The position numbers and the translations under genes are program-made. From an uncultured Ignavibacteriales bacterium (lineage in GTDB: Bacteria; Zixibacteria; MSB-5A5; GN15; FEB-12): 64,000 nt of DNA. Below are positions 3,345-20,744 of this stretch, piece by piece (positions within the stretch are counted from its first letter, which is position 1; every line of letters starts with the position of its first letter). The stretch is taken from the NCBI GenBank assembly GCA_964464605.1, contig CAYXJN010000004.1:186001-250000 (forward strand). Reading direction: 5' to 3'. Below the pieces are notes generated by a model, which did no database searches, was not told the DNA's origin, and saw only the letters and a list, made by a program, of their open reading frames with translations.

Positions 3345-4151
3345 ATGGCTGAAAAACAGGCTGAAAAACCGACTGGCGGACGGGTTACCGAGCGCCAGCG
3401 ATTCAATTACATCGGATTTGATGTTTTCCCCGGCGACCCGAAAGACCTGTTCGGGACCGATGCGGAAAAAGGGAAACTGGTCGACCAGGTGCGCCGTCGC
3501 CGCGAATCCCACGATACGCTTCGCGCGAACAATTCACTTATTGAGGAGCGAGTCTCCAAACTCGACCGACTGGTTCTAACGGTTGCAGCCATTGCCATGG
3601 TTGTGTCGCTGTTGTTCCCCTTCTACTCTGCATACACAGAGAAGGTAGAGGAAAGTCAGGTTCAGGCATCGACCTCATCAACAACCGGAATCGGAACCGA
3701 AGAGGTTATCACCGGTTATGTTCCCAAAAAGAAGATTACCAAAGAATATAGTTCGGTCACCGGCTTGGGTTCATTCGCGTATATCGGTAGTATTTTTTCT
3801 GCCGGTCCGATTCTGATGCTAACCGGTATCCTGCTGCTTTTGTATACGCTGGTCTGTTTGATCGTACCGGCCTATACCTTGTACGGATTGTACGGACTCA
3901 AAGGAAATCCGGATGATCGGGCGCTCAAGCTGAAAGAGATTTTGCGGTTCGGCTGGCTGCCGCTGCTCACGTTAGTAGTGGTGCTGTTATTCTCATTCTT
4001 AGGCTCAGGCTACGGCTCAAGCGGAGCAAGCGAGTTTACCAGTTTCGGCGCCAGTTATTCTGTCGGTGTCTTCTTCACGACACTGTCGATCGGAATTTTG
4101 ATTTCGATGATCGGCGGAATCGTGATCGCGGTTAAGGGAATTGAAATTTAA
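3345..4151 (+). CDS. Integral membrane protein of unknown function, about 4 TM helices, in the ExbBD/TonB operon
   Basis: SD GAGGAG upstream; four hydrophobic stretches; lies between the TPR gene and exbB with short spacers. Confidence 0.75.
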   Translation: MAEKQAEKPTGGRVTERQRFNYIGFDVFPGDPKDLFGTDAEKGKLVDQVRRRRESHDTLRANNSLIEERVSKLDRLVLTVAAIAMVVSLLFPFYSAYTEKVEESQVQASTSSTTGIGTEEVITGYVPKKKITKEYSSVTGLGSFAYIGSIFSAGPILMLTGILLLLYTLVCLIVPAYTLYGLYGLKGNPDDRALKLKEILRFGWLPLLTLVVVLLFSFLGSGYGSSGASEFTSFGASYSVGVFFTTLSIGILISMIGGIVIAVKGIEI

Positions 4152-4186
4152 CTTGTAACGTATAGGTTTTACGGAGGAACGTATCT

Positions 4187-4945
4187 GTGGTCAAGCAAAC
4201 GGTATTCATCACGATCAATGCGTTGATCGGATTTGTCGTCGGAGCCGGATTATTTTACGGCGTGTTCAGAACTGCCGAAGATCCAATCCTGCACTCAATT
4301 TATAAAGGCGGCCCGCTCGTTATTCTGCTCATCATGATCATGGTCATGTTGTTCATCTTTATCGGTGAGCGTTATTTTTCATTGTACGGCGCAGCCAAAG
4401 GTACCAGCTCGGTACAGGTGTTCTTCAAGAAAGTCGTGACGCTGCTTCAGGCGAACGATTTCGACGGCGCCCTGGCCGCGTGCGACAAACAGCGCGGTAC
4501 CACCGCCAACGTCCTTCGTGCTGGTATTGAACGCTATCGGGAAGTGAAAGACAGCAAAGACTTGACCTCAGAAAAGCGTATTGAATTGACCCAGGCCGCG
4601 ATTGAAGAAGCGAACGCCCTTGAAGGACCGCTCCTTGAGCGCAACCTGATCGCCCTGTCGACCATTGCCTCCATCGCCACCATGGTGGGGCTGTTGGGAA
4701 CCACGATCGGAATGATTCGCGCCTTCGCGGCTACCGGTAACGTCGAAGGCGGCGTTATTGACGCTACCGCATTGGCGACCGGTATTTCCGAAGCGCTGGT
4801 GAACACCGCGGGCGGACTGATTTCCGGTATTCTCGGAATCTTCTTCTACAATTTCTTTGTTAATAAGGTAGATGCATTCAACTATACCACGGATGAAGCA
4901 TCCTTTGAAGTCATGCAGATTTTGAAGGATAAAGAAGGTATCTAA
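4187..4945 (+). CDS. exbB: MotA/TolQ/ExbB proton channel protein
   Basis: LSTIASIATMVGLLGTTIGMIRAF and GISEALVNTAGG motifs; SD GGAGG; GTG start. Confidence 0.92.
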   Translation: MVKQTVFITINALIGFVVGAGLFYGVFRTAEDPILHSIYKGGPLVILLIMIMVMLFIFIGERYFSLYGAAKGTSSVQVFFKKVVTLLQANDFDGALAACDKQRGTTANVLRAGIERYREVKDSKDLTSEKRIELTQAAIEEANALEGPLLERNLIALSTIASIATMVGLLGTTIGMIRAFAATGNVEGGVIDATALATGISEALVNTAGGLISGILGIFFYNFFVNKVDAFNYTTDEASFEVMQILKDKEGI

Positions 4946-4947
4946 GG

Positions 4948-5424
4948 ATGTCTAAAGGAAAGAAAAGACGCGTAAGCATCCGTATCGACATGACGCCCAT
5001 GGTCGATATCGCGTTCTTGCTTTTGATTTTCTACATGGCGACTACGCAGTTTAAACCACCAGAAGCTCGCGCGGTGGAACTGCCGGAATCCCATTCGCAG
5101 ATCGAACTGCCGGAAAAAGATGTTATTTTCATCACCGTGACGCAGTACGATTCGATGTACGTCGATTTCGTCGAGAAGGCGAAAATCGAAATGGAAGGTC
5201 AGGAAGTGACCACTACGGTGCGTCGCGTTCGCTCGGTCGACCGGTTCTCAGCAGCGAGTGTGATTAATGATGTCCGTGCCAAAAACAGCCGCGCATTGGT
5301 CGTGGTGAAAGCGGATAAAGAGGCCTCGTTCGGGGTCATGCAAGGGTTGATGAAGACGATGCAGGAAAACTTTCTGGAGCGCTTCCTCATCATTACCGAA
5401 AAAGAATCTGATCAAGCATCCTGA
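4948..5424 (+). CDS. exbD: ExbD/TolR biopolymer transport protein
   Basis: IDMTPMVDIAFLLLIF with the conserved TM Asp; VVKADKEASFG. Confidence 0.92.
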   Translation: MSKGKKRRVSIRIDMTPMVDIAFLLLIFYMATTQFKPPEARAVELPESHSQIELPEKDVIFITVTQYDSMYVDFVEKAKIEMEGQEVTTTVRRVRSVDRFSAASVINDVRAKNSRALVVVKADKEASFGVMQGLMKTMQENFLERFLIITEKESDQAS

Positions 5425-11159: not shown

Positions 11160-12950
11160 CTAAAAGGGGCAGGTAGCAGGGGGTGGCCCTCCGGCATACA
11201 AATACTGAACCAGGTAAGTGACATCGGCAATCGTAATTTTACCGATACCGTTCGCGTTTCCTTCCTCGAAACAGGCAGGCATGGGGCCGGAGTTAAACAG
11301 ATAGCTGACTAAAAAGGTCAGATCGGCAATCGTAGCATTGCCGCCGCTGTTGTTAGCGTCGCCGCGTATGCCCGTACAGCAGCTTACCACCTGTACGGCC
11401 CCGGAAGCGGTAACAGGATGTGCCGCGAGGCAATGTGATGCAAAGCTCGGTTCATAGGGAATAGAATCCGGGTAATCGGTAAAGGAAATCATGTTTGTTC
11501 CGGCTGAAGCGTTTCCCGGGATAGCGAAACGTACTTTCACAACCGGACCGCTGCCTGCGGGCAATGGAGGGATGGAATCACTGCCACCGGAAAGCATAAT
11601 CACCATGCGGTTATTGCTTGAATCAAGCAGGGTAGTTTCCGATTGAAAATACTCAGTTCGTGTTTCGGTGCGATCCAAATCGACAAAATGCAGTGTTGAC
11701 GTTCCGGGCCATGACACGGGAATTTGAAATTGTCGAACCGGGTGTGAATTGCTTGCGGAAATCGTAACTTCGGCTTCTGTGCCGTTGGTTGCTATTATCG
11801 CATCTGTCCACATGGTATCATGGATGACATCAGTGCGTTCTTCGATGACAAACAGTTTTCCGTCGGTGTTTGAAATGTACATAGTGCCGTTGTTTGTGTA
11901 TGGGTAGCCGCCCCACGCGCCCCGAAAGTTCGCAAAGTTCGTCGGCCACGTGTCATATTGCAGTTCAACCGTCGGATTAGTCGGATCGGAAACGTCAAAA
12001 ATCACTGCGCCGGCTTCGTAATGCGAGGTGTAAACCCGATCTCCCTTCCAGTAGGCGTTGTGCGTGACATGGCTCGGCCCGAGAATTTCACCGATAAGGG
12101 ATATCGAATGAATATCCTGCATATCCCAAATCTTGAGCGTTTTGTCGGCAGTTTCTTCAGTGGTTACCAAATACCTGCGATCATCACTCGGCCAGAGATT
12201 ATGCATATACCCGCCACCTGGGATCGGAACGCGGGTGATGAGAGCAGGGGACATTTTATCCGCCATGTCGTAAATGGAAAATGAGACATTCCATCCTTCG
12301 GCAATATAGAGAGTGTCATCAAGCGCCGTCATATCGTGAATCCCGCCGGCAATGCCAAAACTGTTCACATAGACCGGTACAGCCGGATTAGCGAGGTCAT
12401 GGATATAAATTGCTTTGCTTGCGGTTGTAATTCCTTCGAGATATGCAAAGCCGTTGGTGGTATCGATGCTTAAACTATGCGATGCAACTTGTATCACCCC
12501 GTTTGTCGGATAGATACCGGCGATACTGACACTGTCAGGTAAATTTTCTAAATCGATTACCATGAGTCCGGCATTGGTGCCTGCACATTCGGAAGTAATA
12601 TAGGCGAAATGATTGTAGACTCGCATTTCCCGCCAGCGAGGGCCATTGATAGCCGAACCGCAGGCAGTCACCGGACCGGGGATAATATCGACCACGGTCA
12701 TGTTTGCCGTATTCACTACCGCGATGCCTTCGTAAACGCCATAAATTGCGTACTCGGTGCCGTCTGGCGCACGATATCCCCAGCATCCGGTTCCGGCGCC
12801 GGTACCGATCTGGATAATCCCTTTATCGCACAGATAATGCGCAGTATCGCCGGAGTTGTATTGGTTGAGTATCGGTTGAGCTGTTATCGAAATAGGCAGT
12901 GTGAGTAAAAAAAGAATAGTTACTAAAAGATATCGAGTGCAAGTACTCAT
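11160..12950 (-). CDS. Secreted choice-of-anchor B-like protein with cohesin-like and dockerin-like domains, paralog 2
   Basis: Same motif set as 9091; signal peptide; C-terminal CCTGIRGDANN..TIADLTFLVSYLF repeat pair. Confidence 0.8.
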   Translation of the reverse strand: MSTCTRYLLVTILFLLTLPISITAQPILNQYNSGDTAHYLCDKGIIQIGTGAGTGCWGYRAPDGTEYAIYGVYEGIAVVNTANMTVVDIIPGPVTACGSAINGPRWREMRVYNHFAYITSECAGTNAGLMVIDLENLPDSVSIAGIYPTNGVIQVASHSLSIDTTNGFAYLEGITTASKAIYIHDLANPAVPVYVNSFGIAGGIHDMTALDDTLYIAEGWNVSFSIYDMADKMSPALITRVPIPGGGYMHNLWPSDDRRYLVTTEETADKTLKIWDMQDIHSISLIGEILGPSHVTHNAYWKGDRVYTSHYEAGAVIFDVSDPTNPTVELQYDTWPTNFANFRGAWGGYPYTNNGTMYISNTDGKLFVIEERTDVIHDTMWTDAIIATNGTEAEVTISASNSHPVRQFQIPVSWPGTSTLHFVDLDRTETRTEYFQSETTLLDSSNNRMVIMLSGGSDSIPPLPAGSGPVVKVRFAIPGNASAGTNMISFTDYPDSIPYEPSFASHCLAAHPVTASGAVQVVSCCTGIRGDANNSGGNATIADLTFLVSYLFNSGPMPACFEEGNANGIGKITIADVTYLVQYLYAGGPPPATCPF

Positions 12951-13052: not shown

Positions 13053-14924
13053 TCACGGACAGGCGGGCGGGGTTGCGCCGCTGTTAAAGAGATACTGTAC
13101 CAAGTAGGTCAAATCCGCAACAGTAATTCCGCTGATCCCGTTCACATTCGCTTCATCGGTACACGAGGGTGAGGTGCCGTCGTTGAACAGATATTGCACC
13201 AGGAATGTAAGATCCGCAACGGTGATCGTTCCGTTGCCGTTTACGTCGCCGCGTGTTCCCACGCAGCAGCCGGCAACTTGCACTTCACCGGAACTGGTGT
13301 CCGGATGAACCGTAATGCACTTGGTGATGAACCCGGGTTCATACGTATTAGGACCGCTCACGAACGGAGCGAAAGTAACCGGATTGGTCGTTCCCAAAAC
13401 GCCGTTCGGCACACTATAGATCACTTTGAGAATTGGTCCGGAACCCGGGGCGAGATCCGGCGCAGTATTGTTGGTTGAAGAGGTTAGGTTCACCACCAAA
13501 CGACGGCCGGGGAGGTCGTTAGCCGGATAGCTTTCCGACTGGAAATAATCCGTTCTGGTGCCGGTGCGATCGGTCGTTACGAAATCCATATTGGACGGGC
13601 CGTTCCAGTCGAGCGGAATCTGGAATTTACGAATCGGATGCGAGTTGCTGGCATAGATCGTTACCGTGACCTGTGTCCCTTCTCCGGTTACCGTCGTGTC
13701 AGCCCACATCGTATCGTTTAAGATTTCATTTTTCTCTTCGAGTACATAGAGCTTACCGTCTAAGTTGGAACCGAAAAACGCGCCACTGTTGGTGTACGGG
13801 AATCCGCCCCACATACCGTTGAAGTTGTGCGTTGCCGTCGGCCAGGTGTCGTAGCCAAGAACTTCAACAATGTTTTCCGGATCGCTGGCATCGAAAATCT
13901 TCATCCCCGCTTCATAGTGGGAGAAGTAGATGCGGTCTCCTTTCCAATACGCATTGTGAGTCAGGCCATCCGGCGGGTTGTACTGATTGACAAACTGCAC
14001 GTCGCCGAGATCGGAGATATTCCACATGGTGATATTCGGGCCGCCGAGTTCGTCGGTAGCAACCAGATAATCACGATCATCGCTCGGCCAGATGTTATGG
14101 ATATACTGAGCACCCGGAACGGCGATGCGCGTAATCAGCGCCGGCGCCATTTTGTTTGCCATATTGTAAATACCGATGGACAGATTAGAACCTTCCGCTA
14201 CATACAGTGTGTCATCAAGCGCGGTGCAATCATGGATACCGCCGCCGATACCGAAGCTGTTGACATAGACCGGGGCTGCCGGATTTGCCAAATTGTGAAT
14301 GCGGATTGAATTGTTCGCAGCCGAGGTTCCCTCAAGGTAGGCGTAGCCGTTGGTGGTATCGATATCAAGACTGTGTGACGTTACCAATCCACCGGGAGGA
14401 TAGGCCTGAAACGCGCCGACTAAATTGACACTAGCCGGCAGATTGCCGAGGTTAATAACCATTAATCCGGCGTTCGTTCCCGTACATTCAGACACGGCGT
14501 ATGCATAATGGTTATAGACACGCATTTCACGCCAGAGTACCGTTCCGCATCCACCGGTCGGACCGGGAATAATACCGACAGTGGTCATGGTGCTGGTATT
14601 GACGACAGCGATACCGGTGGCAACACCCATGATGGCGTAGTCAGTACCATCCGGTGCGCGATACCCCCAGCAACCTGTTCCGCCGAAGGTACCGAACGAC
14701 AAAATTCCTTTGTCGCAGATGTATTGAGCCGTGTCACCGGTTTCATACACAATCTGCTCGGCTTCTTCCGGGCTTGAAGCCAACTGCGTACCGGCTTCTT
14801 TGCTCGGCTTGTTCCGATTATCCCAGTTGGGATCGTTGAGTACCGAAAGCGGCACTGCGTACAGCGATGCGGAAATACAGAGCACCGCTAAGGCTACAGT
14901 TAACATTCCTCTGAATCGCGTCAT
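13053..14924 (-). CDS. Secreted choice-of-anchor B-like protein with cohesin-like and dockerin-like domains, paralog 1
   Basis: SD GAGGAG, signal peptide, same motif set, C-terminal CCVGTRGDVNGNGTITVADLTFLVQYLF repeat pair. Confidence 0.82.
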   Translation of the reverse strand: MTRFRGMLTVALAVLCISASLYAVPLSVLNDPNWDNRNKPSKEAGTQLASSPEEAEQIVYETGDTAQYICDKGILSFGTFGGTGCWGYRAPDGTDYAIMGVATGIAVVNTSTMTTVGIIPGPTGGCGTVLWREMRVYNHYAYAVSECTGTNAGLMVINLGNLPASVNLVGAFQAYPPGGLVTSHSLDIDTTNGYAYLEGTSAANNSIRIHNLANPAAPVYVNSFGIGGGIHDCTALDDTLYVAEGSNLSIGIYNMANKMAPALITRIAVPGAQYIHNIWPSDDRDYLVATDELGGPNITMWNISDLGDVQFVNQYNPPDGLTHNAYWKGDRIYFSHYEAGMKIFDASDPENIVEVLGYDTWPTATHNFNGMWGGFPYTNSGAFFGSNLDGKLYVLEEKNEILNDTMWADTTVTGEGTQVTVTIYASNSHPIRKFQIPLDWNGPSNMDFVTTDRTGTRTDYFQSESYPANDLPGRRLVVNLTSSTNNTAPDLAPGSGPILKVIYSVPNGVLGTTNPVTFAPFVSGPNTYEPGFITKCITVHPDTSSGEVQVAGCCVGTRGDVNGNGTITVADLTFLVQYLFNDGTSPSCTDEANVNGISGITVADLTYLVQYLFNSGATPPACP

Positions 14925-15108: not shown

Positions 15109-15138
15109 TTGACACACTGAACAAATGTTCAGTATCTT
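15109..15138 (+). promoter_or_regulatory. Sigma70-type promoter with a LexA/Cheo-like operator in the spacer
   Basis: TTGACA (15109-15114), N18, TATCTT (15133-15138); perfect palindrome ACTGAAC-aaat-GTTCAGT at 15116-15133. Confidence 0.7.
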
Positions 15139-15243
15139 GCGTGACCAGCCGATAAAGGGCAGGGAGAAAGGAACAGACCAATGGAACAACCAATCAAGGC
15201 CACGGCTCAACTAAAAACTTGGCGAGCCGGATGGGGAGTCGGT

Positions 15244-15417
15244 ATGGCAGATACAGAGGAGGTATCTCCATTATCACTTTCCATTCCGGCAGAGACTGAG
15301 TCCGACTACTGCTTTCAGAATGCCGCTACCTGCACTGAGTGCGGGGGAGGAATGATGCGGCTTGGTTCCTGTTTTGTCTGCGCAACGTGCGGTTCCGGAG
15401 GATGTGAAGGGGGCTGA
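15244..15417 (+). CDS. Small zinc-ribbon protein (57 aa) resembling the C-terminal tail of class II ribonucleotide reductase
   Basis: SD GGGGAG before ATG 15244; CTECGGGMMRLGSCFVCATCGSGGC. Confidence 0.6.
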   Translation: MADTEEVSPLSLSIPAETESDYCFQNAATCTECGGGMMRLGSCFVCATCGSGGCEGG

Positions 15418-15446
15418 CCATATAGGTCGTCCGTAAGGAGGCAACT

Positions 15447-18128
15447 ATGATGACAGTAAGCGAACTGAGAACATTCGGTATACCGGAAACAGTAATCGGC
15501 GCCTGGCAGAAACGGCAGGGGGATATTTTGCTTCCGGTGCAAAGCCGGGCCGTCCGGCAGGGGCTGTTAGCCCAGTTTGAACGGGAGCGGAAAACGGTGC
15601 ATCGGAACATGATTATTTCCGCGCCGACTTCCGCCGGGAAATCTTTCTGCGCCGAACTGGCGATTGCCAAAGGATTAGCTGAACGCCGGAAAAGCATCTA
15701 TTTAGTGCCGCTCAAATCACTCGCGGAACAACGTCATCGTGCCTTTTTGGAAACCTACGGCCCGCTCGGTGTCCGCTGTTTGATCGTAACCGGGGATCAT
15801 CCGGATCATGATGCCCCGTTTGCCGCCGGAGAATACGATATCGCGGTGGTCATCTATGAAAAACTCGATCTCTTGTTATGCGACCGGCTTGATCTGTTAC
15901 AGTCAGTCGGGTTGTTGATTGTCGATGAGATGCAAACTATCGCCGAACCGGGCAGAGGTCCGGTGCTGGAGCGACTGCTTACGACGGTGCTTACTTCGGT
16001 ATACAATCCGCAGATTATCGCGCTCTCGGCCGTCATCGGTGATCGCTCGCTTGAGCTGTTAGCGCAGTGGTTGGGAGCGTCTATTGTCGAGGAGCATGCC
16101 CGCCCGGTTGAATTGTTACGCGGGGTGTTGGTGGATAATCAATACACCTATCGCTCATTTAACGCGGGTCATCGTGGGCAACAGCAACTGACTAAGGATA
16201 CATCGGCCGAAAATCATTTCGATATGTTTGCCGAATTAGTCAAATCAGACAGCGGTGCGACATTAGTGTTTTTAAAATCCCGCAGGGAAACAATAGAACG
16301 GGCGGTTGCCTTAGCTGCACAGGTCAATTGGCCGACTGCGCAACAAGCGGTGGATGAACTGGGGGATGAAGAACCATCTTTCTTGAATCGCACGTTGCGC
16401 CAGGCCTTGAGTCGGGGAATTGCGTTTCACAATGCCGATCTCACCGCGCGGCAGCGTCGGATTATCGAAGATGCCTTTTTGCGCAAAGAAGTACGTGTGC
16501 TGTTTTCGACGACGACATTGGCGATGGGTGTCAATCTTTCCGCCGACACGGTATTTCTGGAAACGGTGAAATACGCCGAAGCGGAATATGAAGGACGGCC
16601 ATCGTTAGTACCGGTCAGCCGCGCTGAGTTTGATAATATGACCGGACGCGCCGGACGGTTCGCTTCCGAGCGGCCGAACAGCACCGGTCGCGCAATCATC
16701 ATGGCGCAGACACCGCTTGAGCAGGAGATTTTGTGGGATGCCTATATCGCTCCGCAAAAAGAGGAGCCGTTAGTTTCGGCATTCTCTCTCTATTTGATCA
16801 CTGATTGGCTCTTGCATGGAATCGTATCCGGATTGGTGCATTCATCCGTATCGGCTGAACAGCTGTTTGCGAAAAGTTTGTATACGACCTCAGGCGGCGT
16901 CATTGAAGATATCCCGAAAGCGCTTTCGACATTAGTTGATACCGAACTCGTTTCGGTGCATCAAAGCAGCACCTACGCGGCGACATCATTGGGTTGCGCG
17001 GTTGCGGGAAGCGGATTAACGATTTCACAGGCAACCTATTTGATACGTTCACTCTCGTCATATCAACCTGCTTCAACCGTTGAATGGTTAGCGCTGGCCA
17101 TAAGTATTCCGGATTGGCGCTTGCCGACGGCACTGCTTACGCAGTTTGAATATCGGGACCGGATTCCGCTGAAATCTGCTTATCGCCGCTATGAGGATAT
17201 GTTTCCCGGTATCGAGCGGATGATTCCCGCCTTGCGCGCCGGCCGGCCGGATCGCCGTACCCTTTCATTGCTCAAATGTCTGTTGCTCTTAGATGATTGG
17301 CGCGCCGGTTTACCAATTCCCAAGCTGGAAGAGCGGTACGGCATTCATCACGGACAGATTATTTCACTCGGTGAAACGATCGGACATCTGGTCAGAGCGA
17401 TTGCGATGATTCGAGAGGTAACCGAACAAACGGCATCCTGCGCTGAACTCTACGCGCTCGCATTTTCATTGCGTACCGGATTGCCGCCGGAACTGCAGCA
17501 TCTGCACAATTGTTTCGGCACATTTTTACAACGGCGGGAACTGCTCGCACTGCGCGCGGAAGGAATCACGACCGCCGCCGCGTGTGCCGCGCTCACGGAT
17601 GAGCAATTACACCCGTTGATTCATGGAATTTCACGACTACATCAATTTAAAGAAATACTTACACACATGTACGAGGAGGTTGTCATGCAAACGTCAGGTT
17701 CTCTGTCCACCACGCAGCAGCTTTCACCGCTGAGTTCCACTCAGCCGAATCTGGTTGAAGTCGACGGATCGCAGGAAGGTGAACGCTATGTTATTAAAAT
17801 CAACGGTCAGCCGGTTCGGTTGACGGCGAAATCATTCAAGTATTTTGCCAAACTCGCCTGGGCCCGGGTGAACAGTGAAAACGGCTGGCTGTTCAAAGAG
17901 GAGATAGAGGTCGGTTTTAATCAGGCGCGCTATCTCTATCGGATGAAACAGGAGATTGCAGGCGGCAATAACTTGCCCTGGCAGGTTATCGAAAATAACC
18001 GGTTAGGCTATTACCGGCTTGCTGTTTCCCGTGATCAGATTCGGGTTAATGTAGAAGCTTTGCGTACCAGCGACGATTACGAACTGCGTAAGCTGGCTGA
18101 AACAGAACTGTTGCGGACGGTAAATTGA
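15447..18128 (+). CDS. Ski2/Hel308-like superfamily 2 helicase with a C-terminal winged-helix extension
   Basis: SD TAAGGAGG; Q motif LPVQ; Walker A APTSAGKS; PLKSLAEQ; DEMQ; LSAV; FHNADL; TTTLAMGVN; NMTGRAGR; Hel308-like WH, ratchet and HhH regions. Confidence 0.88.
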   Translation: MMTVSELRTFGIPETVIGAWQKRQGDILLPVQSRAVRQGLLAQFERERKTVHRNMIISAPTSAGKSFCAELAIAKGLAERRKSIYLVPLKSLAEQRHRAFLETYGPLGVRCLIVTGDHPDHDAPFAAGEYDIAVVIYEKLDLLLCDRLDLLQSVGLLIVDEMQTIAEPGRGPVLERLLTTVLTSVYNPQIIALSAVIGDRSLELLAQWLGASIVEEHARPVELLRGVLVDNQYTYRSFNAGHRGQQQLTKDTSAENHFDMFAELVKSDSGATLVFLKSRRETIERAVALAAQVNWPTAQQAVDELGDEEPSFLNRTLRQALSRGIAFHNADLTARQRRIIEDAFLRKEVRVLFSTTTLAMGVNLSADTVFLETVKYAEAEYEGRPSLVPVSRAEFDNMTGRAGRFASERPNSTGRAIIMAQTPLEQEILWDAYIAPQKEEPLVSAFSLYLITDWLLHGIVSGLVHSSVSAEQLFAKSLYTTSGGVIEDIPKALSTLVDTELVSVHQSSTYAATSLGCAVAGSGLTISQATYLIRSLSSYQPASTVEWLALAISIPDWRLPTALLTQFEYRDRIPLKSAYRRYEDMFPGIERMIPALRAGRPDRRTLSLLKCLLLLDDWRAGLPIPKLEERYGIHHGQIISLGETIGHLVRAIAMIREVTEQTASCAELYALAFSLRTGLPPELQHLHNCFGTFLQRRELLALRAEGITTAAACAALTDEQLHPLIHGISRLHQFKEILTHMYEEVVMQTSGSLSTTQQLSPLSSTQPNLVEVDGSQEGERYVIKINGQPVRLTAKSFKYFAKLAWARVNSENGWLFKEEIEVGFNQARYLYRMKQEIAGGNNLPWQVIENNRLGYYRLAVSRDQIRVNVEALRTSDDYELRKLAETELLRTVN

Positions 18129-18287: not shown

Positions 18288-20744
18288 ATGATAATACGAG
18301 CCAAAACGACCATACCTGCCCCTGAATCCGGCAAAGCCTCGACTCGCCCGATTCTCCCGCTTCGTTCCGGTGTCCTATTCCCCGGAACGGTGTTGACCTT
18401 GCATATCAGCCGTCCGGATAATGTCAGCCTGATTAATGCCTGCTCTGCGAATAAAGAATCTTTTGTCGCTTCGTTCACCTTAGCAAATTCCGAAAATGGT
18501 TCCGCAACACCGATTCACCAGGTCGGTGTGCTTGCCCGTTTGGTCGATACCCGTCCGGATAAACATGGTCCGATGGTCGTCACCATTGAAGGAACAAAAC
18601 GGGTTTCGATTAATGAAATCGCTCATACGACTCCATACTTGCAGGGAATCGTTACCGAAATTCCGGAAAAAGCCGGAAAGCATGAACAGTTCACGGCCAT
18701 CATCGAACAGATTTTAGCCGCAGTTCGGGACATTATCGCGATCGACCCGACCTATTCATCTGAACAGGTTCGGTTGTTGGAACAGCATATTGATACTCCG
18801 TCGATTTTTGCCGACCGCGCTGCTGCGCTGTTTCATTTGCCGTTGACCAACAAACAGGAACTTTTGGAGACGGTGAATATCGAAAAGCGGCTTGAACTGT
18901 TACTGGTTAATCTCAAAGAAGAATTAAATCAGGTTTCGGTTTTGCACTCGATCCGTGACCGGGTAGAGCAGAATATCGAAGAGGACAGAAAAAAATATTT
19001 CCTTCGTCAGCAGGTCAACGAAATCCGCCGACAGTTAGGGGAGGATGTCACCGAGGAGCGCGACCTTGTCCGCTTACGCTCGGTTCTTGCCGGTATTTCT
19101 ACAATGTCGCCGGAAGCCGCCAGCCGTGCCGCAATTGAACTTGATCGTCTCACGCAGTTGTCGACTGCCTCAGCCGAGTACGGCGTTACCAAAAATTATC
19201 TCGATTGGTTATTGAGTCTGCCCTGGGGGAAATTTTCGGCGGAAGATTACGCCATTGCCGATGTCGAAAAAATACTGAGCACTGAATACTACGGTCCCTC
19301 GGCGTTAAAAGAGCAAATTCTCCAGCGGATATCTGTTCGCAAACTGTTAGGCGGAACGCAGGAAGGCCCGACCCTTTGTATGGTCGGTGCACCGGGAACC
19401 GGTAAAGCGGCCTTGGCGCGCGCAATAGCCCGGTCGATGAAGAAAGAATTTATTCGTATCTCCGTCGGCGGTGTATCCGACATCACTGAGCTCAAGGGAG
19501 CGCCGCGAACATTTTTAGGGGCAATGCCCGGAAAAATTATGCGGGCGCTGCGCGATGCCGGCTCGTCCGATCCGGTCATTCTGCTTGAGGATATCGATTA
19601 TTTCAACGTCGATAATAATTCCTCAGTCAACATGGCGCTCTTGGATGCTATCGATACGCGCAGAAACTCACGCTTTTTAGACAATTACTTAGGCGTCCCG
19701 TTTGATTTAAGCAAAGTGCTGTTTATCTGTTCCGTTCGTTCATTCGAAGAGATTCCGGAAGCGTTTATTCCCCGGTTCGAATTGCTTGAGTTGCCGGGAT
19801 ATATCGAAAAAGAAAAAATTGCCATTGCCCGGAAATATATTATTCCGAAACTGCTCAAACAGCACGGCATCACCAAATCGGAAGTCCATTTTACCGGCAG
19901 CGTGCTTTCCAAAATTATTCATTCCTATACGCAGGAAGCCGGACTGCTCGGGTGTTCGCAGCAAATTGAACGTATTTGCCGTAAAATTGCCCTGCAAAAA
20001 ACTCAGGGGCATAAGCATGTTTGGAATGTGACAGAAAAGAATTTAGAATCCTTTCTCGGTTCACCAACCTTCATCCTGGAAAAAGCAGAAGCGAAACCGG
20101 AGATCGGTACCGCTGCCGGATTGGCATGGACCGGGGCGGGCGGTGATTTAATGTTCATCGAGGGCTTAAAGATGAAAGGGGAGGGACAGATTATCACGAC
20201 CGGTTCACTCGGTGAAGTGATGCGTGAATCAATTCAGGCCGCCCACTCATACGTCCGCTCAAAATCCGATATGCTGGCGATTGATTTTGCCGACTTCAAT
20301 CAGTTCGATATTCATATTCACTTTCCGTCGGGAGCTATCCCTAAAGACGGCCCTTCTGCCGGTGCCGCTGTCTGTTTGGTTATCGCATCGGTAATGTCGG
20401 AACGTCCGATTCGGAATGATATCGCCATGACCGGTGAAGTAACCTTGCGCGGCCGCGTATTGCCGGTCGCCGGTATCAAAGAGAAAGTTTCGGCGGCGTA
20501 TCGCGCCGGAATTTCACATGTTGCTCTGCCGAAAGAAAACCAAAAGGATGTTAAAAATCTTCCTAAAGATATTCTGCGTAAGATCAATTTCTCATTTATT
20601 GATCGTGTCGATGAATTGTTCGCGATTTGTTTGATGGATTTCACGCCGTCAGCCTATACGCTTGAAAAAATCTTCACCGAAGAAATCGAAAAAGCAAAAC
20701 GTCGTCGCCGTCAGCAAAAGGCACGCCTGGCGCGTCGTCACTGA
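18288..20744 (+). CDS. lon: Lon (endopeptidase La) homolog with degenerate AAA+ motifs
   Basis: Lon N domain LPLRSGVLFPG; protease PKDGPSAG (Ser) and GIKEK (Lys) intact; Walker A GAPGTGKAA and Walker B ILLEDID are non-canonical. Confidence 0.9.
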   Translation: MIIRAKTTIPAPESGKASTRPILPLRSGVLFPGTVLTLHISRPDNVSLINACSANKESFVASFTLANSENGSATPIHQVGVLARLVDTRPDKHGPMVVTIEGTKRVSINEIAHTTPYLQGIVTEIPEKAGKHEQFTAIIEQILAAVRDIIAIDPTYSSEQVRLLEQHIDTPSIFADRAAALFHLPLTNKQELLETVNIEKRLELLLVNLKEELNQVSVLHSIRDRVEQNIEEDRKKYFLRQQVNEIRRQLGEDVTEERDLVRLRSVLAGISTMSPEAASRAAIELDRLTQLSTASAEYGVTKNYLDWLLSLPWGKFSAEDYAIADVEKILSTEYYGPSALKEQILQRISVRKLLGGTQEGPTLCMVGAPGTGKAALARAIARSMKKEFIRISVGGVSDITELKGAPRTFLGAMPGKIMRALRDAGSSDPVILLEDIDYFNVDNNSSVNMALLDAIDTRRNSRFLDNYLGVPFDLSKVLFICSVRSFEEIPEAFIPRFELLELPGYIEKEKIAIARKYIIPKLLKQHGITKSEVHFTGSVLSKIIHSYTQEAGLLGCSQQIERICRKIALQKTQGHKHVWNVTEKNLESFLGSPTFILEKAEAKPEIGTAAGLAWTGAGGDLMFIEGLKMKGEGQIITTGSLGEVMRESIQAAHSYVRSKSDMLAIDFADFNQFDIHIHFPSGAIPKDGPSAGAAVCLVIASVMSERPIRNDIAMTGEVTLRGRVLPVAGIKEKVSAAYRAGISHVALPKENQKDVKNLPKDILRKINFSFIDRVDELFAICLMDFTPSAYTLEKIFTEEIEKAKRRRRQQKARLARRH

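Follow-up and report, generated by a model that had tools for sequence, protein, structure and literature searches.

The locus described here raises the question of whether one bacterial gene gives rise to two proteins, the second of them from a start codon lying deep within its own reading frame. It belongs to an uncultured bacterium of the phylum Zixibacteria, deposited as Ignavibacteriales (assembly GCA_964464605.1). The stretch of DNA analysed, referred to as the window, is 64,000 nucleotides (nt) long and corresponds to positions 186,001 to 250,000 of contig CAYXJN010000004.1, and the genome carrying it (G000) amounts to 2.8 Mb in 18 contigs. One open reading frame (ORF) of the window encodes a Hel308-like helicase body that ends in a C-terminal winged helix-turn-helix (wHTH) domain, and an initial annotation, made from the letters of the sequence, had pointed to a ribosome-binding site and an in-frame ATG between these two parts. 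The comparisons reported below make it quite probable that the gene yields both a 99.8-kDa helicase-wHTH protein and a free 16.9-kDa wHTH protein. The signals are observed directly in the nucleotides, and we infer from them that the short protein is made and has a function.

The internal start site and its conservation

In the window, GAGGAGGT occupies positions 17673-17680 and is followed by tgtc and by the ATG at 17685-17687. This ATG is codon 747 of the ORF 15447..18128, since (17685-15447)/3 = 746 codons precede it. The arrangement noted initially is confirmed, including its place at the border between helicase body and linker, where the coordinates agree with the end of a helix in the structural model: the last helix of the body spans residues 728-749, with Met747 at its end, and a compact domain covers residues 770-890 beyond a poorly ordered stretch (Table 1). 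The first 23 residues of the 147-amino-acid (aa) product include 14 that are S, T or Q. The spacer between AGGAGG and ATG is 5 nt, equal to that at the helicase's own start, and 5 nt is also the modal spacer of the AGGAGG-led gene starts of G000 (13 of 62, with 11 at 6 nt). The 16S rRNA of this genome ends in ...GGATCACCTCCTTTCT, a canonical anti-Shine-Dalgarno of the CCUCCU type. Across the 2.8-Mb genome there are 78 AGGAGG-N4-8-ATG sites, 48 of which open ORFs of at least 100 codons. Four of these 48 have at least 150 open codons upstream in frame, and the site studied here is the most extreme, with 753. The internal AGGAGG-ATG exceeds chance expectation. The letters are reproduced with zero differences by a contig of a sequencing run (X2, either an independent run or the source run) which spans 17245-17854; coverage of the window was assessed through contigs of sequencing runs only, and uncovered parts carry no meaning.

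The helicase is present in all 41 relatives' genomes searched. In a set of 30 relatives the junction was fixed by alignment column alone, which leaves no bias from picking a Shine-Dalgarno (SD) sequence. The start codon is ATG in 29 of them and GTG in the remaining one (L019), and the AGGAGG at -11..-6 is perfect in 24, retains five of six bases in five and is absent from one (L025). Codon 743 is GAG in 18, AAG in five, CAG in three, TTG in one and TCT in one, and never NAA. Codon 744 is GAG in 28 and GAA in none, whereas over 20 other conserved Glu columns, taken as a control, the GAG share averages 0.52 and reaches 0.70 at most. Codon 745 starts with G in 26/30 while encoding V, D, E, A, N or L. 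The third positions of codons 743 and 744 carry 1.78 and 1.79 bits of information, which places them in the top ~1% of 882 columns.

A broader pool of 91 distinct junctions presents the same picture. Positions -11..-7, which include two third-codon positions, carry 1.62-1.83 bits each, as against 0.39 at position -12; 88 junctions have ATG as their start codon and three have GTG, and positions +3..+17 carry at most 0.52 bits each. When the 87 junction ATGs of 94 distinct genes were scored against the SD, 62 matched at 6/6 bases, 24 at 5/6 and one at 1/6; the 1,326 other in-frame ATGs of the same 94 genes, used as a control, scored 6/6 once and 5/6 37 times. Since the bases A-G-G-A-G are constant where residues 743 and 745 differ between relatives, the SD and the start are judged to be conserved at the nucleotide level, beyond amino-acid constraint, over about 100 orthologous genes. 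The initial annotation had left it to a comparison of orthologues whether the SD and Met are retained, and the comparison answers in its favour.

A site conserved in this way might still be an unused remnant, the SD and ATG being left over from an old fusion and the full-length protein being the only product. A stop codon lost between two genes would leave exactly such a layout, and one clade of the phylum manages without the site. Unused signals decay, however, and among proteins that are 38-52% identical, with synonymous sites elsewhere randomised (the GAG share of 0.52 given above), codon 744 counts 28 GAG and no GAA and the single departure from ATG among 30 starts is GTG, itself a start codon. 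Since this synonymous conservation persists, we regard an unused remnant as highly improbable. The initial annotation offered two isoforms and a fusion that lost a stop codon as alternatives. Both are supported, and it is their opposition that does not hold, since the signals at the fusion junction stay under selection: most likely the junction is the relic of a former two-gene boundary that lost its stop codon, with signals that selection still appears to maintain.

Of 201 genomes sampled across the phylum, 196 contain the wHTH domain, nearly always as a single copy in a frame of ~870-1,060 aa, and junctions were also taken from 20 genomes of more distant families. An AGGAGG-type SD with a 5-nt spacer and ATG recurs in families f1-f5, f7, f15 and f18; in f5, f7, f15 (3/3 rows) and f18 it stands 6-11 aa ahead of the domain, and in f2, where the linker measures 46-49 aa, AGGAGA-N5-ATG is kept. 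Linker length thus ranges from 6 to 49 aa among distant families that share SD, spacer and ATG. A maximum-likelihood tree was built from 35 C-terminal segments; the 12 rows that lack the site form one cluster in it (support 97/94), and the site-bearing rows fall on both sides of the midpoint root. The simplest reading, under this provisional root, is that the site is an old feature which would since have disappeared from one clade, from f8 and from L025.

The same spread of families bears on the suggestion that selection acts on a peptide motif, [EKQ]-E-[VD]-x-M, as a helix cap, degron or protease site, the nucleotides being a by-product. E744 and M747 are residues with a conservation of 90% or more, and M747 lies in the last turn of the modelled helix 728-749, as such a motif might. 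Against this, residues 743 (E, K, Q, L) and 745 (V, D, E, A, N, L) vary chemically while the SD bases are fixed, and synonymous third positions count among the best-conserved sites of the gene. The model itself is of low confidence at this point (mean pLDDT, the predicted local distance difference test, of 54 for the block 741-750), and f5, f7, f15 and f18 differ in peptide context and share AGGAGG-N5-ATG. We consider a protein-level motif very unlikely.

Several points nevertheless weigh against a short product made from this start. In family f8 one row is ambiguous and the other lacks the site, which is also absent from 12/12 rows of f10, f11 (3), f12 (4) and f16 (4), and in roughly half of the fused homologues that are more distant still, available as proteins only, the linker has no Met. 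Because of the site-less clade, the f8 row, L025 and these Met-less linkers, the short isoform is to be regarded as strongly maintained in many lineages yet dispensable in some. The counts also have their limits: the 80 further loci of a wider contig collection show a pattern matching that of the 30 relatives, with the start taken as the best SD within a 73-codon window, which biases the count, and all junction counts derive from related sequences, not from independent events. Relative to the remainder of the gene, the interval from -30 to +20 has little RNA structure (mean z +1.49; in the least-structured tenth in 67% of 76 genes), and GC content dips locally at the junction. The low structure counts in favour of an internal start, but both features could partly reflect the K/E-rich end of the helix. 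A contig from an RNA library is identical to 15232-15442 and bears on no translation question, and both the free 16.9-kDa product and initiation at 17685 are predictions from the sequence. Lastly, the initial annotation had raised the question of whether some genomes carry split genes, and no clean helicase-stop-wHTH split was found among the genomes examined.

The short frames that could have passed for split genes were all rejected, on account of contig ends (G185, G206, G150, G131, G152, G201), N runs (L064, L087, L140), frameshifts in the long-read metagenome-assembled genomes (MAGs) L058 (= G186) and L118 as well as in L060, and mid-helicase in-frame stops or local frameshifts (L063, G153). 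The nearest approach to a split is locus L116 (genome G041, 3620-4283), from which the helicase and the small zinc-ribbon-like ORF that precedes it in the window are both missing. What is left is the promoter-operator, a short leader, AAGGAGG-acaaa-ATG and an intact wHTH ORF of 166 aa, with lon downstream as in the window. No helicase match was found anywhere in the G041 assembly, which measures just 1.9 Mb, so the helicase may lie elsewhere in the organism. As far as the layout of L116 indicates, the nested start is there an ordinary gene start, with the wHTH behind the same SD and ATG.

This locus is also relevant to the idea that the SD acts on elongating ribosomes, either as a folding pause or through a programmed frameshift that would release a helicase devoid of the wHTH. 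SD-like stimulators of programmed frameshifting are known from dnaX and prfB; a strong SD located within an ORF, where two domains meet, would suit such a role, and a truncated helicase would be biologically sensible. The idea leaves the invariant ATG/GTG 5 nt downstream unexplained, however, no slippery heptamer or stop is conserved in the weakly constrained positions +3..+17 (at most 0.52 bits), and in L116 an ordinary gene begins with this very SD and ATG. An effect on elongation in place of initiation is, in our view, highly improbable, and internal initiation remains the preferred explanation of the site.

Apart from the helicase gene, a second nested candidate was seen outside the window on the minus strand of G000:C8, with AGGAGG and ATG at codon 287 of a 407-aa frame; its start precedes an apparent OmpA-type C-terminal part, judged by eye. 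Two further AGGAGG-ATG sites, on C5 and C3 of G000, look like chance.

A Hel308-like body with a winged-helix tail

The long product would be a protein with a computed isoelectric point (pI) of 6.2. Its residues 3-721 match the archaeal Hel308-type model PRK02362 (E 7.6e-83, 279 bits, under the cut-off of 887), and the NCBIfam model helicase_Hel308 gives 206 bits, below its equivalog threshold of 1200. Pfam matches comprise DEAD (E 2.9e-23), Helicase_C (E 3.9e-8) and archaeal helicase domain 4. As described in the accessible text of PMC13623763, the Hel308 architecture consists of five domains, namely RecA1, RecA2, a winged helix (WH), a ratchet and a helix-hairpin-helix (HhH) domain 5. An AlphaFold model of the full-length protein, built on 24 orthologues, reached a pLDDT of 85 and a predicted template modelling score (pTM) of 0.75. 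Its top Foldseek match was 2zj8 (Hjm; E 9.3e-39, TM 0.87 by target, 765 columns), followed by 2va8, 2p6r and the helicase domain of PolQ.

Because the model superposes on Hjm/Hel308, the body is assigned, at the level of structure prediction, the five-domain Hel308/Hjm-like architecture of superfamily 2; the superposition on the archaeal proteins (2zj8, 2va8, 2p6r) extends over ~750 columns with TM 0.82-0.89 by target. The protein differs from archaeal Hel308/Hjm in being bacterial and far under the NCBIfam equivalog cut-offs, in carrying an extra linker and an OmpR-type wHTH after domain 5, and in being encoded behind a LexA-type operator. A 3'-5' DNA translocase or helicase activity is putative, the motifs that suggest it being DEAD and Helicase_C. 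Public records call these genes 'DEAD/DEAH box helicase' or 'helicase', and among the names listed none indicates a second product. In several MAGs the helicase body is interrupted by stops or frameshifts and the wHTH frame is open (L063 at 5095-5097, L167 at 1624-1626, L058, L118, L060). These broken frames may be assembly errors, two of the MAGs being long-read ones, or decaying helicases that retain the wHTH.

The tail is the best-conserved part of the entire protein, and all 30 of 30 relatives share the same putative recognition helix, NQARYLYRMK, and the same wing, NNRLGYYRL. Folded alone, it was predicted with a pLDDT of 83.8 and a pTM of 0.78, and the model displays the four-stranded N-terminal sheet, helices alpha1-alpha3 and C-terminal beta-hairpin wing of the OmpR/PhoB fold. 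Its best Foldseek rows were OmpR, PhoB and CadC domains, with weak E-values of 0.03-0.3. Sequence comparison returned little: Pfam gave no family at E <=1 for the 147-aa product, PF00486 (Trans_reg_C) was matched by 0/24 family members and PHROGs likewise by 0/24, and a search of PDB sequences with the family profile yielded chance-level rows (best E 0.045). A profile-profile alignment (hhalign) to the three Trans_reg_C domains of G000 was weak, with a probability of 52% and E 1.4e-4 over 39 columns, in the expected register. Because there is no match in Pfam or PHROGs and the profile-profile match is weak, the tail is best described, on its predicted structure, as an OmpR/PhoB-fold winged helix of an undescribed family and not as a member of PF00486. 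The initial label of an OmpR/ToxR-type wHTH is accordingly upheld by the predicted fold and not by Pfam.

In contrast to the effector domains of OmpR, PhoB, CadC and ToxR, the domain is found here with no receiver domain and no membrane anchor, and it carries a conserved C-terminal extension of 30 aa. Sequence-specific DNA binding is putative, its indirect signs being the pI of 8.9 of the free product and the invariant helix and wing.

A search of a library of 1.84 billion proteins gave 253 matches at E <=1e-3, both fused and free. Free relatives of 110-170 aa are numerous; many of the closest entries, of 143-149 aa, sit on contigs of ~0.5-2 kb and may be fragments. Two free paralogues were inspected and both lie in phage-like regions, one of 144 aa in L135 (3957..4391, minus strand) and one of 148 aa in L136 (350..796, plus strand). 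The latter adjoins a ParB-methylase and a terminase-small-like ORF, and small phage-type ORFs occur in these neighbourhoods. Together with L116, these phage-region relatives suggest that the wHTH module works without the helicase.

SOS control and the role of a free winged helix

The palindrome in the promoter spacer ahead of the operon (Table 1) had initially been put forward as a possible binding site of the free wHTH. Of 110 loci, 71 have this promoter-plus-palindrome design ahead of the helicase (upstream regions of L002-L117), mostly with GCAC/GTGC arms, and the module can be written CTTGACA-n-CTG[C/A]ACAAATGT[G/T]CAG-TAT, the box itself being CTG[A/C]ACAnnTGT[T/G]CAG. This module is also present in lexA promoters. 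At the same promoter position, the box precedes lexA in six of nine genomes examined, with up to one mismatch in G010, G027 and G012 and up to two in G209, G022 and G210; no box was found before lexA of the other three (G000, G008, G023). The recA gene of G000 has TGAACGTTTGTTCA upstream, which matches the box, and no convincing box was found before recA in five other genomes. From these occurrences the module is probably the SOS box of Zixibacteria, and the helicase operon is probably, by prediction, under SOS control.

Because the box stands in the lexA promoters of six of the nine genomes and before recA of G000, LexA appears a better candidate than the wHTH for binding the palindrome. An autoregulatory free wHTH is not without arguments: in 71/110 loci the palindrome takes up the promoter spacer of the same operon to which the wHTH belongs, in L116 it lies directly ahead of the free wHTH gene, recognition helix and box are both highly conserved across the phylum, and the case for LexA is itself qualified by the boxless lexA genes of G000, G008 and G023 and by the unconvincing recA regions of the five genomes mentioned. 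The sharing of the box with lexA promoters and recA is, however, the signature of a LexA regulon, and the box is an inverted repeat of 16-18 bp, whereas OmpR-type domains usually read direct repeats. In addition, G000, L016 and L075 carry a symmetric GAAC/GTTC variant in which both arms have switched from GCAC to GAAC, with the wHTH helix unaltered. Autoregulation through the palindrome is thus unlikely, and control by LexA remains the favoured view.

The LexA of G000 (L037) has His where eight other Zixibacteria LexA have Arg, in the helix STNGV-R-xH. A covariation between this helix and the box was considered and rejected, given that G022 has the same GAAC box yet keeps Arg. The Cheo-box pattern CGAACNNNNGTTCG was likewise discarded for G000, with nine matches versus eight in the reversed control and no enrichment.

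A separate promoter for the wHTH was not apparent, a consensus scan for sigma-70-like sites giving none near 17685. In the mechanism that we propose, one mRNA from the LexA-controlled promoter at 15109-15138 would carry the zinc-ribbon ORF and the helicase ORF. Ribosomes starting at 15447 would produce the 99.8-kDa Hel308-like helicase with its tethered OmpR/PhoB-type winged helix, and other ribosomes would bind AGGAGG at 17674-17679, start at the ATG at 17685 and release a free, basic 16.9-kDa winged helix with its linker. If this isoform exists, the chances are about even that after SOS induction it acts on DNA independently of the helicase, either as a damage-induced regulator or, at the sites of the tethered wHTH, in competition or partnership; such roles are favoured because L116 and the homologues in phage contexts work without a helicase. 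A more elaborate and rather doubtful scenario has the operon switched on by cleavage of LexA and makes the product of the nested cistron a damage-induced, diffusible DNA-binding factor which either forms a second tier of the SOS response or gates the helicase by occupying or marking the sites of its tethered wHTH, the helicase-wHTH gene being a captured mobile-element regulator that has retained its own start.

Comparison with known systems and layout of the locus

It is mostly through ribosome profiling of model organisms that in-frame nested starts come to light. Among genes for DNA enzymes, an in-frame internal start is known from phage T7 gene 4 (4A/4B), phiX174 A/A* and Tn5 transposase/inhibitor, and the short Tn5 product acts as a modulator of its longer counterpart. 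The short forms of these three keep the catalytic part and lose the N-terminal DNA-binding part, whereas the short product predicted here would be the DNA-binding tail only. Cas11 is made from within cas8 in bacterial type I systems too.

In Haloferax, according to the part of PMC11899642 that is accessible, Cas11b is translated from within cas8b. The likeness lies in a large nucleic-acid-handling protein whose C-terminal part is also made from an internal Met, and for Cas11 both products, short and long, serve a single pathway; Cas11 differs from the wHTH as modelled here in that it joins the same complex in several copies. The closest parallel is ArcB-C of Escherichia coli, which the available text of its report presents as an in-frame internal start where the C-terminal HPt domain begins, confirmed with Ribo-RET and western blotting, alongside rpnE/ypaA as a further internal-start case (Meydan et al., bioRxiv 10.1101/520783). 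As far as that text goes, ArcB-C resembles the present case in having an SD-like sequence and a start inside a long ORF, at the onset of the last domain, with the site conserved in orthologues and the last domain as a free diffusible protein (here a predicted one), and rpnE/ypaA parallels the stand-alone homologues of the wHTH. It is unlike the present case in that ArcB is a sensor kinase and not a helicase and that the domain freed here has a DNA-binding fold; moreover, Ribo-RET and western blot stand behind ArcB-C, and what stands behind the helicase gene is its nucleotide sequence, with conservation over much of a phylum and a perfect AGGAGG.

The anatomy deduced for the helicase gene is that of ArcB-C and of Cas11b/cas8b, and the comparative support is unusually clean. 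A literature search, thin on subscription journals, brought up nothing about an OmpR-type tail on a Hel308-like helicase or about a nested start within a gene of this type. Should the internal start be in use, a gene that is near-universal and single-copy in Zixibacteria (domain in 196/201 genomes) would encode two proteins, the SOS response of an uncultured phylum would include a free winged-helix factor not yet listed, and the gene would rank among the clearest comparative examples of a cistron nested in frame, identified by conservation of sequence alone. The site-less clade and the helicase-less L116 locus constitute natural controls. The work also defines an unannotated OmpR-fold domain family, which occurs as a stand-alone protein in phage-like regions as well.

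Table 1. Positions in the window of the nested start, the protein regions it separates and the elements flanking the helicase gene
Feature	Position	Strand	Remarks
Full-length ORF: helicase body (~1-746), linker, C-terminal winged helix	15447..18128	+	893 aa, 99.8 kDa
Internal Shine-Dalgarno AGGAGG	17674..17679	+	within codons 743-745 (GAG GAG GTT)
Internal in-frame start codon ATG	17685..17687	+	Met747
Nested cistron, predicted free isoform	17685..18128	+	147 aa, 16.9 kDa, pI 8.9
Disordered S/T/Q-rich linker, variable in length and sequence	17685..17744	+	residues 747-764 pLDDT <50; near-zero conservation past the ATG
OmpR/PhoB-type winged-helix fold (predicted)	17745..18029	+	residues 767-861
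Conserved C-terminal extension, strand and two helices	18030..18125	+	motif HPDYE.R
Sigma-70-like promoter TTGACA, 18-nt spacer, TATCTT	15109..15138	+	10/12 consensus matches
Palindrome ACTGAACAAATGTTCAGT, putative LexA-type (SOS) operator	15116-15133	+	occupies the promoter spacer
Small Cys-rich (zinc-ribbon-like) ORF	15181..15417	+	78 aa; first gene of the operon
Primary ribosome-binding site AAGGAGG (15435-15441), spacer caact (5 nt), helicase ATG at 15447	15435..15449	+
lon (endopeptidase La), downstream neighbour	18288..20744	+	TIGR00763, 716 bits vs cut-off 608

In NCBIfam, the first ORF of the operon is weakly matched (E 3.1e-5, well short of the cut-off) by the model for the C-terminal Zn finger of B12-dependent ribonucleotide reductase, and similar ORFs with a CxxC...CxxC pattern also lie upstream of the helicase in L058 and L060. 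On the downstream side synteny is kept, Lon-like N-termini following the helicase gene in L058, L060 and L064 and the wHTH gene in L116. Further upstream in the window, on the opposite strand, two adjacent paralogous genes of the 'choice-of-anchor B' type occupy 11160-12950 and 13053-14924 (TIGR04312, E ~1e-48 each).

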